Source of the DNA: Candidatus Saccharimonadota bacterium
GTDB lineage: Bacteria; Patescibacteriota; Saccharimonadia; Saccharimonadales; Saccharimonadaceae
DNA length: 64,000 bases
Direction: 5' to 3'
Assembly (NCBI GenBank): GCA_030530605.1
Contig: JAUMUO010000004.1
Span: 14,631-78,630 of the forward strand
Within the stretch, counting starts at the first letter, position 1. Each line of letters starts with the position of its first letter. Below the pieces are notes generated by a model. It was given only the letters and a program-made list of their open reading frames with translations, did no database searches and had not been told where the DNA came from. Positions 25,535-29,947 of the stretch are shown piece after piece. Both the position numbers and the translations under genes were made by a program.

Positions 25535-26275
25535 ATGGAAGAAAAATTCAAGAAGTGGGTTGAAGACCAACTAGAAAATGAGCTCCCTGGCGCAGATGTG
25601 GAACGCGCGATGGATTATGCCGACGATCTTCTCCACGGCCTCAAAACTATGCGTACCTACCCCCAGGGTGTAGTGATTTATGGCTCTGCCCGGGTCAAGC
25701 CAAATGAAAAATACGCGCTCGCCGCTAGAGAACTCGGCGGGATGCTAGCCAGAAATGGTCACGCCGTTATCACCGGCGGTGGCCCCGGCATCATGGAAGC
25801 TGCGCACCACGGTGCCTTTGAATATGGCGGTCGCACCATCGGCCTCAATATTGAGCTTCCCCACGAACAACACATTAACCCTTACGTCACCGACCAACTT
25901 GAGTTCAAATACTTTTTCGCTCGCAAAGTGATGCTCGCGATGAGCGGCAAGGTCTATGTCTTTTTCCCAGGTGGTTTTGGCACTTTGGACGAATTGACTG
26001 AAATTCTCGTTTTAATTCAAGAAGGTAAGATGCCAAAGATGCCGGTTTTCCTCTATGGCAAGTCCTACTGGCGCGGCCTTGATAAATTCTTCAGAACCCG
26101 CCTCTACAAGGATAAGATGATTCATTTTAACGACCTTGCTATCTATAAAGTCACTAACGACTTAAAAGAAATCGTCCGGACCGCCAATAAAATCGGTCAC
26201 ACCAAAGTTGGCGAAAATGTCTATGACACTCTCGTGGCACTCTCAAAACAGCCGAATTCACCCTTGAAAAATTAA
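25535..26275 (+). CDS. LOG family nucleotide-binding protein (TIGR00730-like)
   Basis: GSAR, TGGGPGIM, YFFARK, PGGFGTLDE. Confidence 0.9.
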   Translation: MEEKFKKWVEDQLENELPGADVERAMDYADDLLHGLKTMRTYPQGVVIYGSARVKPNEKYALAARELGGMLARNGHAVITGGGPGIMEAAHHGAFEYGGRTIGLNIELPHEQHINPYVTDQLEFKYFFARKVMLAMSGKVYVFFPGGFGTLDELTEILVLIQEGKMPKMPVFLYGKSYWRGLDKFFRTRLYKDKMIHFNDLAIYKVTNDLKEIVRTANKIGHTKVGENVYDTLVALSKQPNSPLKN

Positions 26276-26299
26276 ATTAGATTTCCTATAATTATAGAG

Positions 26300-26605
26300 A
26301 TGGATATTACACGCGAGCAAATTGACCACCTCGCTGAGCTTTCCGATTTCAAATTAGAAGAAGCGGAAAAGGAATCTTTGAGAGGTGATCTTGAAAACAT
26401 TATTAAATATATTTCTGAACTAGACAGCCTGGATACCGAGGGTATTGAGCCGACGTATCAGGTTTTTGAAATGGAAAATGTCTGGCGCGAGGACGAAATT
26501 CTCCCCCAGGATGCCGACCGAGAAAAACTCCTAAAAACCGCCCCCGCCTTCCACGGCAAAGAGGGTGTGGAAGATTATCAAATTAAAGTTCCAAAGGTAT
26601 TATAG
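26300..26605 (+). CDS. gatC: Asp/Glu-tRNA amidotransferase subunit C
   Basis: HLAELS, REDE, VPKVL; precedes gatA. Confidence 0.92.
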   Translation: MDITREQIDHLAELSDFKLEEAEKESLRGDLENIIKYISELDSLDTEGIEPTYQVFEMENVWREDEILPQDADREKLLKTAPAFHGKEGVEDYQIKVPKVL

Positions 26606-26607
26606 TT

Positions 26608-27984
26608 ATGAAGATTGCTGATAAAACTACCTCTGCCGTCCAAATGGTCAAAGAGGCCCTAGAAAAAGCTAAGAAATACTCAGATTATCATATCTTTGTG
26701 AGCCTAAACGAAGAAACTGCCTTAAAAAAGGCTGAGGAGATTGACGAAAAAATCGCTCGTGGCGAAAAAGTTGGCCGTCTCGCCGGTGTGCCGTATGCGT
26801 GTAAAGATAACTTCTTGAGTGAGGAAGGGAACACTACTGCTTCTAGTAAAATTTTAGAGCCGTTCAAGGCCCCGATTACTGCCACCGCCGTTGAAAGGTT
26901 AGAGGACGAGGGTGCAATTATGATTGGCCGCGCTAACTTGGATAGCTTTGCTCACGGTTCTTCCACGGAGAACTCTTACTTCGGTCCAACTAGTAACTCT
27001 AAAGATAAAGAGCGCGTTGCTGGCGGTTCATCCGGCGGTTCGGCTGTGGCTGTCGCACTTGATATTGTAGAGTTTGCAACAGGCACCGACACCGGCGGTT
27101 CCATCCGCCAGCCAGCTTCGTTCAACGGTGTTTATGGCTTCAAACCGACCTATGGCACAATTTCTAGATATGGTGTCGTCGCGATGGCTTCCAGCCTGGA
27201 CTGTGTTGGTTTCTTCGCTAAAGACCCGGAAGATATTGATTTATTGATGGAAGTCTGTGCCGGCCAGGACCCGAAGGATATGACCACTCTCCCTGATTAC
27301 TATAATAAAGAAAATGAAATTTCTGCTAGTAAAATTGGTATCGTTAAGGGCTTCGGCCAAGGCCTTGCGCCCGAAATCAAGACGGCCTACGAATCTGAAA
27401 TCGAAAGCTTAAAGAGTAAGGGCTATGAAGTTATCGAGCTTTATATGCCAACTCTAAAATATGCTCTCCCGGTTTATTATATTCTTTGCCCCGCCGAAGT
27501 TTCCTCCAACCTTTCGCGCCACGACGGCGTTCGCTATGGATTCCGCGCCGAGGGTGTCGAAAGTCTAGAAGATGTCTATGGCAAATCTCGTTCCGAGGGC
27601 TTTATGCCAGAGAACAAGCGCCGTATTATGATTGGTAACTTCGTGCTATCAAGTGGCTTTTATGATGCTTATTATCTCAAGGCCGCCCAAGCTCGCACCC
27701 TGATTATCAAAGAATACGAGGAGTCCTTTAAGAAGTGTGATTTTATCCTTACCCCTGTTTCTCCGAACCCAGCCTTCAAACTTGGCGAAAAAACCGGCGA
27801 CCCACTCGCGATGTATATGGAAGATGTTCTCTCAGTTCCTTTGAACCTCGCCGGCCTTCCGGGCTTGGCTATTCCGGTTGGAAAAACTAAAGACGGCCTC
27901 GACCTCGGTCTTCAAATCGTCGGTCCGAGAAGAAGCGATAAATCTTTATTAGCATTTGCTAGCAAAATTAAGGAGGAAAAATGA
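26608..27984 (+). CDS. gatA: Asp/Glu-tRNA amidotransferase subunit A
   Basis: GGSSGGSA, GTDTGGSIRQPA amidase signature. Confidence 0.97.
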   Translation: MKIADKTTSAVQMVKEALEKAKKYSDYHIFVSLNEETALKKAEEIDEKIARGEKVGRLAGVPYACKDNFLSEEGNTTASSKILEPFKAPITATAVERLEDEGAIMIGRANLDSFAHGSSTENSYFGPTSNSKDKERVAGGSSGGSAVAVALDIVEFATGTDTGGSIRQPASFNGVYGFKPTYGTISRYGVVAMASSLDCVGFFAKDPEDIDLLMEVCAGQDPKDMTTLPDYYNKENEISASKIGIVKGFGQGLAPEIKTAYESEIESLKSKGYEVIELYMPTLKYALPVYYILCPAEVSSNLSRHDGVRYGFRAEGVESLEDVYGKSRSEGFMPENKRRIMIGNFVLSSGFYDAYYLKAAQARTLIIKEYEESFKKCDFILTPVSPNPAFKLGEKTGDPLAMYMEDVLSVPLNLAGLPGLAIPVGKTKDGLDLGLQIVGPRRSDKSLLAFASKIKEEK

Positions 27985-28400
27985 ACGGTACGCTCGTAGC
28001 CCTCTTAATCGCTATCTTAATTGTAGGGATTTTGGCCTTTGTCGCTATCACTCTCACTCAAAATCGCAAGCACGGCTTTAATCGCGAAGATTACCAGGCG
28101 GAGTTTCTCTCTATCCAGACCAGTCTCAAAAAGGAATCTCCTGATTCCGCCAGCATGGTAATCGTTAAGGCGGATAAATTGTTAGACCAGGCTTTAATTG
28201 AAATCGGCCTTTCCGGCAAGACTATGGGCGAGCGTCTAAAGAAACTTCACGGTCGCCTCTCTGATGAGAACGGCGTCTGGGCCGCCCACAAGATGCGCAA
28301 CCGTATCGCCCACGAAACTAATTACGCCGCTTCCTACGAAGATGCCAAATACGCCCTCTCTGCCTATAAAACCGCATTAAAAGATTTAGGAGCCATATGA
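27981..28400 (+). CDS. Membrane-anchored protein with HEPN-like RxxxxH motif
   Basis: N-terminal TM; ADKLLDQAL..G..G.TMGERLK; RNRIAH at 28296-28313; ATGA overlaps with both gatA and gatB. Confidence 0.7.
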   Translation: MNGTLVALLIAILIVGILAFVAITLTQNRKHGFNREDYQAEFLSIQTSLKKESPDSASMVIVKADKLLDQALIEIGLSGKTMGERLKKLHGRLSDENGVWAAHKMRNRIAHETNYAASYEDAKYALSAYKTALKDLGAI

Positions 28401-29884
28401 AATACGAAATTACTATTGGCATTGAATGTCACGTCCAGCTAAAAACTAAAACCAAGCTCTTCTCCGAGGTTGATAATGATGCCCGAGAAAAAGAGCCGAA
28501 CTCCTGCGTCTCCCCGGTTGACTACGCGCTTCCTGGTGTGCTCCCGCGCCTCAATAAAGAGGCGGTTAGTCTCGCCGTCCGCGCCGGCTATGCTCTGAAT
28601 TCCGAAATTAATCTCTATTCCCGCTTCGATCGCAAACACTACTATTATCCAGATTTACCGAAAGGCTACCAGATTTCCCAGTTCTACCACCCGATTATCG
28701 GTGCCGGTTTTATTGAGCTACCAAACGGTACTAAGGTTCGCATTGAGCACGCTCATATGGAAGAAGATGCCGGCAAGCTTACCCACTTTAGCAATTATTC
28801 ACTAGTAGATTTGAACCGTGCTGGCACCCCGTTAATTGAAATTGTTTCTATGCCAGACATCCACTCTGCCACCGACGCCCGCGATTATTGTAAGGAACTC
28901 TGGCGAGCTATGACTTACGCCGGTGTCACCTATGGCGACCTTTATAATGGCAATATGCGTTTTGATGTCAACATCTCGCTCGCGCCAGAGGGAGCCAAGG
29001 AGCTTGGCCGTCGCGCCGAAATCAAGAACTTGAACTCCTTTAGAAGCGTTGAGCGCGCCGTGGAATATGAATATGAGCGCCAAAGTAAGATTTTAGACGC
29101 AGGCGAGCGAGTAAAGCAGGAAACTCGCGGGTGGAACGATGCCACCGGCAAGACCACTTCCCAGCGCTCTAAAGAGGAGGCCCAGGATTATCGCTATATG
29201 CCTGAGCCGGACATCCCACCGATTCGCCTAACCCCTGAATTTGTCAAGGAGGAACAAGCAAAAGTCGGCCTGCTCCCGCGTGATTACCGCAAGATGTTTA
29301 AGGGTATCATCCAAGACGATATTTTAGAAGTGCTATTAGATTATCAACCGCTTATGGACTGTTTATGGCAATGTGCTGGCGGCTCTTTCGAAGGGCCTAA
29401 GACTCGGCCGAGCGGCCCGGAGCGGCCCGAGAAAGAGTTGCCAGACATTGCCAAGAGCCATCTGAAGCGTATTGCTAACTGGTTCTCTAGTGTACTCCTA
29501 GCCGAAGAAAAATCCTACGAGATGCTAAATGATTTGCCGTCGTCAAAACAGTTGGACGATCTTGCCGAGATGACCGAAAAACAGGAGCTATCGAGTACCG
29601 GCGCTAAAGAGGTCTTTACGAAGCTCTTTGATCCCCAGATGAAAAATAAGGGGGCTAAAGATATCGCTAAAGAATTAAATGTTCTCCAGGAAAATGACAC
29701 GGGCGCACTTGAGAAAATCGTGGACGAGGTTTTGAGTGACCCGGCCTGCGCCAAAGCCGTTGCGGATTATAAAGCCGGCCAAGAAAAAGTTCTAGGTTTC
29801 TTAGTTGGTCAAGTGATGAAAGCCTCTAAAGGCAAAGCCAACCCTGGCGCCGCCCAGCAAATTCTGAAAAATAAGTTGAAATAA
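28397..29884 (+). CDS. gatB: Asp/Glu-tRNA amidotransferase subunit B
   Basis: GIECHVQL, RKHYYYPDLPKGYQISQ, HMEEDAGK, YRYMPEPD, GFLVGQVMK. Confidence 0.97.
   Translation: MKYEITIGIECHVQLKTKTKLFSEVDNDAREKEPNSCVSPVDYALPGVLPRLNKEAVSLAVRAGYALNSEINLYSRFDRKHYYYPDLPKGYQISQFYHPIIGAGFIELPNGTKVRIEHAHMEEDAGKLTHFSNYSLVDLNRAGTPLIEIVSMPDIHSATDARDYCKELWRAMTYAGVTYGDLYNGNMRFDVNISLAPEGAKELGRRAEIKNLNSFRSVERAVEYEYERQSKILDAGERVKQETRGWNDATGKTTSQRSKEEAQDYRYMPEPDIPPIRLTPEFVKEEQAKVGLLPRDYRKMFKGIIQDDILEVLLDYQPLMDCLWQCAGGSFEGPKTRPSGPERPEKELPDIAKSHLKRIANWFSSVLLAEEKSYEMLNDLPSSKQLDDLAEMTEKQELSSTGAKEVFTKLFDPQMKNKGAKDIAKELNVLQENDTGALEKIVDEVLSDPACAKAVADYKAGQEKVLGFLVGQVMKASKGKANPGAAQQILKNKLK
29363..29453. repeat. Palindromic segment inside gatB coding sequence
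   Basis: 29366-74/29445-53 (9 bp) plus 29376-89/29431-44 (14 bp, two G-T); inner GGGCC/GGCCC. Confidence 0.75.
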
Positions 29885-29947
29885 TCAAAGTATCTATGAT
29901 ATAATAGAAGAAGTCTAAATATTTTTAATGTAAAAATTGAGGAGCCT

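Follow-up and report, generated by a model that had tools for sequence, protein, structure and literature searches.

To our knowledge, bacterial HEPN domains have been described almost exclusively in toxins, abortive-infection systems and CRISPR ancillary nucleases. In the HepT (DUF86) toxins of the HEPN-MNT, or type VII, toxin-antitoxin systems, the active-site motif takes the form RX4HXY and its tyrosine is AMPylated. The HEPN superfamily corresponds to Pfam clan CL0291 and to the ECOD group 'Nucleotidyltransferase substrate binding subunit/domain'. In its published signature, Rx4-6H, the arginine is directly followed by polar N, D or H, and a second conserved position, which is acidic, lies upstream, typically as Ex3[KR] (PMC3710099). 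Forms of the clan member DUF4145 that are fused to a transmembrane (TM) helix have also been listed (Anantharaman et al., 2013). With respect to the tRNA amidotransferase GatCAB, Hp0100 (QueH) of Helicobacter pylori is an accessory factor of the Asn-transamidosome and stimulates the enzyme (PMC8406222). In the literature, we found nothing that joins HEPN domains with GatCAB or with Saccharibacteria, and the work found on HEPN domains and Patescibacteria concerns archaeal immunity.

The closest published counterpart of the gene described here is SEML1_0535 of Southlakia epibionticum ML1, a 420-nt gene that stands between gatA and gatB and overlaps the former by 4 nt and the latter by 1 nt (Wang et al., 2023, Cell; PMC10633639 Tables S1, S2). 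There it is a row in supplementary tables, with no main-text mention, function, topology or distribution; it is flagged as 'core' and 'Patescibacteria-enriched', and DPAM places it in ECOD 1wty at 0.99 (PMC10633639). In the literature that we found, the function of this gene is unstudied, and the gene is known only through these rows. The question is of some consequence, as an intact HEPN active site is fixed in a core, membrane-tethered and probably fitness-critical gene across much of the candidate phyla radiation (CPR), inside the very operon responsible for making Gln-tRNA and Asn-tRNA.

A four-gene unit around gene X

The window analysed is a stretch of 64,000 nucleotides from a Candidatus Saccharimonadota bacterium, to which all coordinates refer. 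We use X as shorthand for the gene at 27981..28400 (+, stop codon included), which starts with ATG and, on the basis of its open reading frame, homologue searches and a structural model, encodes a membrane-anchored HEPN-fold protein of 139 aa. It follows gatC (26300..26605, +; PF02686, E 2e-18) and gatA, the amidase subunit gene (26608..27984, +; PF01425, E 3e-133), and is itself followed by gatB (28397..29884, +; PF02934, E 9e-110, plus PF02637). A sequence-only reading of this DNA had described an open reading frame at 27981-28400 joined to gatA and gatB by ATGA overlaps, and the sequence confirms this description: the gatA stop TGA (27982-27984) overlaps the X start ATG (27981-27983), and the gatB start ATG (28397-28399) overlaps the X stop TGA (28398-28400). 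Also legible in the sequence are a Shine-Dalgarno-like AAGGAGG for X within the 3' end of gatA (27970..27976, +) and an AGGAG (28388-28392) that precedes the gatB start. No internal terminator was found in gatC-gatA-X-gatB. A promoter-like site directly 5' of gatC (26264..26292, +; TTGAAA-17-TATAAT, 11/12) is the likely start of the transcript, and a second promoter-like site before fusA (29876..29905, +) lies at the downstream end of the unit; both are consensus matches only. With stop/start codon overlaps on both flanks of X, the unit has an operon architecture of the co-transcription type. The further claim that expression of X is tied to GatCAB is supported by these overlaps and by the promoter-like sites that bound the unit.

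X is a real gene, far beyond chance, rather than a fortuitous open frame, because one search yields 348 homologues at E<=1e-3 and a second yields 2115 representatives of 50%-identity clusters, and because a match is present in 238 of 401 sampled genomes of the Patescibacteria (CPR), or about 60%. Its GC content equals that of the neighbouring genes, and there is one good copy per genome. The source genome lacks both GlnRS and AsnRS and therefore depends on GatCAB for Gln-tRNA as well as Asn-tRNA.

Membrane anchor, HEPN fold and active-site motif

The N-terminus of X forms a TM helix in the AlphaFold2 (AF2) model (27987..28061, +; residues 3-27), predicted to run N-out/C-in. The external N-tail is very short, at about four residues, and the sequence NRKH stands right after the hydrophobic helix. 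Among 245 single-TM family members, the flanks carry on average 0.14 K+R on the N-side and 3.85 on the C-side, with the C-flank the richer in 241 of them. This positive-inside bias predicts that the C-terminal domain lies in the cytoplasm and upholds what had been proposed from one TM segment followed by basic residues.

The predicted cytoplasmic domain (28068..28397, +; residues 30-139) was modelled with high confidence, with a pLDDT of 94.7 and a pTM of 0.88 for the 110-residue soluble domain and a pLDDT of 90.9 for the full-length protein. Its helices are H1 (35-47), H2 (54-74), a short insert helix (82-89), H3 (96-111) and H4 (119-136). The sequence-only reading had regarded this helical domain as HEPN, and the Foldseek search agrees: the top 19 PDB matches are all HEPN (TMq 0.55-0.68), with probabilities up to 1.00 and weak E-values (0.065-1, none <=1e-3). 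Across the Foldseek results, the leading matches are almost exclusively HEPN and include the HepT toxins 8xdj, 8yuf, 8xeh, 7ae6, 5yep and 6m6u, together with AF0298 (2hsb), 1wty, HI0074 (1jog) and the HEPN domain of sacsin (3o10). The modelled soluble domain has the fold by which the HEPN superfamily is defined (PMC3710099), and at the level of the predicted structure we regard this assignment as supported. Sequence profiles are less direct. No model reached significance in Pfam and NCBIfam scans of the X protein, and sub-threshold matches among 104 relatives went most often to Swt1 (21/104), RiboL-PSP (16/104), Ymh (12/104) and Cthe2314 (6/104), all four of which belong to the HEPN clan. A PDB profile match to HepT had an E-value of 0.18. 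Matches to pilin, ZipA and ComGF in the Pfam and NCBIfam scans were set aside as noise driven by the TM helix, and a PDB sequence search with X alone returned only pilin TM matches. A PDB profile match of the N-terminal half to ribosomal protein bS20 (E 0.025) was rejected as noise of helical composition, since the fold search gives bS20 no support.

The active-site motif RNRIAH (28296..28313, +; residues 106-111) reads R106-N107-x3-H111, an Rx4H motif with the typical polar N after the arginine. None of W100, R106, N107 and H111 varies across 104 diverse relatives with at most 53% identity to the query, and R106, N107 and H111 are likewise constant in 35 closer ones; D65, D69, A102 and H103 are conserved at >=90% in the set of 104. 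In order and spacing the motif fits the published Rx4-6H signature, R being followed by polar N and then H. Candidates for the acidic residue are D65 and D69 in H2, of which D69 has [KR] at +4 (consensus DxALK); they are Asp and not Glu. In alignment, R-N-x3-H falls on SRNQTSH of the HepT toxin 8xdj and on GNxxxH of DUF4145. The identification of RNRIAH as the HEPN signature is thereby sustained, with R and H invariant throughout the diverse homologues. Two results had been named beforehand as counting against the HEPN reading, namely another fold or loss of the R and H among homologues; the fold found is HEPN and both residues are kept.

Membership in a described family is another matter. DUF4145 (PF13643, clan CL0291) was the sole family compared with X profile to profile, and hhalign gave a probability of 65% and an E-value of 6e-5 over 79 columns (H2, insert, H3 and H4), with N107 and H111 on the GNxxxH of that family. 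X was nevertheless rejected as a member, the gathering threshold of the family HMM not being reached. A six-frame genome scan with PF13643 gave no match to X in the source genome or in X-positive relatives, while it matched other loci in 7 of 121 genomes. PF13643 is likewise missing from the Pfam families to which the relatives gave sub-threshold matches. The two also differ in motif spacing, R standing directly before N in X as opposed to R/K-x3-N in DUF4145, and in context, which is typically restriction-modification or conflict for DUF4145 and a translation operon for X. HEPN_Swt1 (PF18731) was likewise rejected, with sub-threshold per-protein matches (best E 0.0037-0.017) and no match to X loci in a genome scan at E<=0.01.

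The fold comparison brings in the reading of X as a toxin or abortive-infection effector, a HepT- or Abi-like HEPN protein lying silent within an essential operon until envelope damage or phage sets it off. HepT toxins do come closest to X in structure (TMq 0.55-0.64, with probabilities reaching 1.00) and share with X a helical bundle of the same size, HEPN domains are common in defence systems, and 3-4 of 35 relatives weakly match the Csx1 or CARF_HEPN models of PADLOC-DB 2.0. The differences are more extensive. X has an N-terminal membrane anchor, and it has no MNT nucleotidyltransferase or other antitoxin-like gene beside it, its neighbours being gatA and gatB. It also lacks an AMPylation site, because there is no Tyr two residues after the His: X reads RNRIAHET (family consensus AHExD), in contrast to the HxY of HepT, visible as SRNQTSHTY in 8xdj. 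Several invariant or strongly conserved features are particular to the X family, including W100, H103, the D65/D69 pair, G-x-TMGERLK and a C-terminal LKDLGAI. PADLOC-DB 2.0 holds no family for the protein, and neither a PHROG match nor a phage match (tblastn against phage records) was found. Unlike a mobile toxin, X behaves as a core and probably fitness-critical gene, and transposon insertions in its Southlakia counterpart are depleted rather than tolerated, the opposite of what a dispensable toxin predicts. The earlier suggestion, that X is a defence effector which senses the envelope from the shelter of an essential operon, fares poorly against single copy, native composition and co-inheritance with gatA across the phylum. 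We regard the toxin or abortive-infection reading as already largely refuted and its probability as slight in the extreme; a conflict or defence role in any broader sense is scarcely more probable.

Distribution, synteny and fitness

We know of no X-like gene outside the phylum, and GatB is present in the control genomes from outside it. Within the sampled Patescibacteria, gatB is found in 394 of the 401 genomes, and about 40% of the genomes have gatB without X. The broader X profile gave no significant X at 20 X-negative gatB loci and in five X-negative genomes, with a marginal match (E 6.2e-4, 18.7 bits) in one of these five. In one complete genome from the same order, gatA overlaps gatB directly and X is absent. 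A subunit of the GatCAB holoenzyme is required to co-occur with gatA and gatB, and X does not. X is not an obligatory GatCAB subunit, because so many genomes have gatB without it and because the slot between gatA and gatB is promiscuous. As to that slot, it is also taken by membrane-protein genes unrelated to X: gatA and X are separated by a gene for an extracytoplasmic cyclophilin (N-in/C-out) at no fewer than 7 of 40 loci, and two X-negative lineages carry T4SS_pilin genes between gatA and gatB.

Where X does occur, gatA directly precedes it at 36 of 40 loci drawn from about 35 families, and in 8 of the 40 the gatA-X pair is found without gatB. Other neighbours are not kept (UvrB in 7/40 loci, LOG and EF-G in 0/40). 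In the synteny survey across CPR that the sequence-only reading had proposed, gatA-X adjacency outlasts all other local synteny. Two X loci (L032, L035) have no gat gene within 6 kb. Pairwise identities of X and GatA correlate (Mantel r 0.33, reached by 0 of 2000 permutations). A search of proteins of 328-1045 aa for X fusions, in which the artificial GatA+X query was restricted to the HEPN region and which covers close word matches only, found none; open frames of 370 and 300 aa around X in one genome (G091) proved to be an over-extended GTG frame overlapping gatA. X behaves as a vertically inherited core gene.

Fitness data come from Southlakia. SEML1_0535 is the positional orthologue of X, an assignment based on position, length and synteny; its downstream neighbours stand in the same order as those of locus L001 of our analysis. 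Its ECOD assignment, 1wty, is a HEPN structure that also appears among the Foldseek matches of X, and ProtNLM names it a 'DUF4145 domain-containing protein'. Its Tn-seq calls are GD/GD/ES, that is, growth-defective and then essential, and its normalised reads fall from 126.6 to 5.9 to 2.8 (PMC10633639). Polarity on gatB may account for this phenotype.

These patterns can be read in two ways that depart from our own. X could be an accessory subunit that certain lineages have added to GatCAB or the transamidosome. Whether or not it cleaves, its HEPN domain would bind tRNA(Gln)/tRNA(Asn) or GatA/GatB, and X would tether or regulate transamidation at the membrane. The persistence of gatA-X adjacency while other neighbours are lost, the stop/start overlaps on both flanks, the co-variation with GatA, the dependence of the genome on GatCAB for both tRNAs, a Tn-seq depletion that resembles that of gatA and gatB at T1-T2, and the precedent of Hp0100/QueH (PMC8406222) all speak for such a subunit. 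They are offset by the fact that GatCAB runs without X in about 40% of sampled Patescibacteria and, as far as is known, in all other bacteria, by the clean loss of X in a same-order genome, by the unrelated occupants of the slot and by the lack of Rosetta-stone fusions among the close word matches searched. Moreover, Rx4-6H is invariant here, whereas it has usually been lost from HEPN domains whose sole role is binding (PMC3710099). We consider an accessory subunit unlikely.

The second alternative is that X is unrelated to GatCAB, the gatA|gatB junction of a constitutively expressed essential operon being simply a place where small membrane-protein genes of streamlined CPR genomes tend to land and are not easily lost, and that X acts on other RNAs, such as membrane-translated mRNAs (Ire1-type decay) or rRNA and tRNA in maturation. 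Use of the slot by cyclophilin and T4SS_pilin genes, the many gatB-bearing genomes that lack X and the two loci with no gat gene within 6 kb are all in keeping with this. Pure accident, however, predicts more scattering at phylum-level divergence; gatA-X adjacency is far more durable than other local synteny and outlives the departure of gatB. An unrelated passenger is accordingly somewhat doubtful to us, if less so than an accessory subunit.

Proposed function and known counterparts

On balance, we lean towards X being a housekeeping membrane-tethered HEPN RNase of Patescibacteria, co-expressed with gatCAB, the RNase activity being inferred. X would be a single-pass protein of which very little protrudes at the N-terminal, outer end, and its cytoplasmic HEPN domain of about 110 residues may act as a metal-independent endoribonuclease. 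H111 would serve as the general base, R106 and N107 would stabilise the transition state, and cleavage would leave 2',3'-cyclic phosphate ends. By analogy with other HEPN RNases, the protein may act as a dimer. The anchor would keep a potentially dangerous RNase at the membrane-proximal RNA pool, and its place in gatCAB could match its dosage to that of the indirect Gln/Asn-tRNA pathway. A non-catalytic role, in RNA or nucleotide binding or as a tether, seems to us improbable.

What such an RNase might act upon is a matter of finer gradation. The idea that X is a domesticated RNase for tRNA/mRNA quality control is a reasonable one to infer, and is weakened as a GatCAB-specific function because about 40% of Patescibacteria have gatB without X. 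A general role in membrane-proximal RNA processing or decay, with the operon position as regulatory hitch-hiking, comes close to an even call. The source genome also encodes RNase Y, which ordinarily serves as the membrane-anchored RNase of decay, and we count this against the reading of X as a housekeeping RNase. The link to the tRNA amidotransferase is suggestive, and the view that the substrate or partner of X belongs with GatCAB, tRNA(Gln) or tRNA(Asn), as in tRNA removal or processing around transamidation, is a tentative proposal that we place well short of even. More speculative, and improbable in our estimation, is the proposal that X is a tRNA-directed endoribonuclease or gatekeeper coupled to GatCAB at the membrane, cutting untransamidated Glu-tRNA(Gln) and Asp-tRNA(Asn) or holding them back from the ribosome, or else a minimal bacterial Ire1-like RNase that senses the state of the membrane through its helix.

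If X is an RNase, a major bacterial lineage that is still poorly understood would gain a new housekeeping RNase, and X would exemplify a conflict-type nuclease put to cellular use. Should it work with GatCAB, it would be a new component of a universal translation-fidelity pathway, and as a gatekeeper it would add a new fidelity layer to indirect aminoacylation in organisms without GlnRS and AsnRS. The question lends itself to direct testing, since the orthologue is present in S. epibionticum ML1, a Saccharibacterium for which genetic methods exist.

Two comparisons place the housekeeping RNase that we favour among known systems. Hp0100 offers by analogy a precedent for a lineage-specific extra protein that stimulates GatCAB, and it differs from X in its unrelated fold and family, in having no membrane anchor and in being encoded outside gatCAB. 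No KEN or Las1 match ranked among the sequence and fold matches of X, and X has no kinase, sensor or partner domain and an external tail of only some four residues; the resemblance to Ire1, KEN and Las1 is best taken as an analogy of design and not as family membership. Within that analogy, the KEN domains of Ire1 and RNase L, like Las1, are housekeeping or signalling HEPN RNases of eukaryotes that process cellular RNA rather than serve in conflict, as is proposed for X, and Ire1 would be the nearest in plan, being likewise a single-pass membrane protein with a cytosolic HEPN domain, whose RNase activity needs dimerisation.

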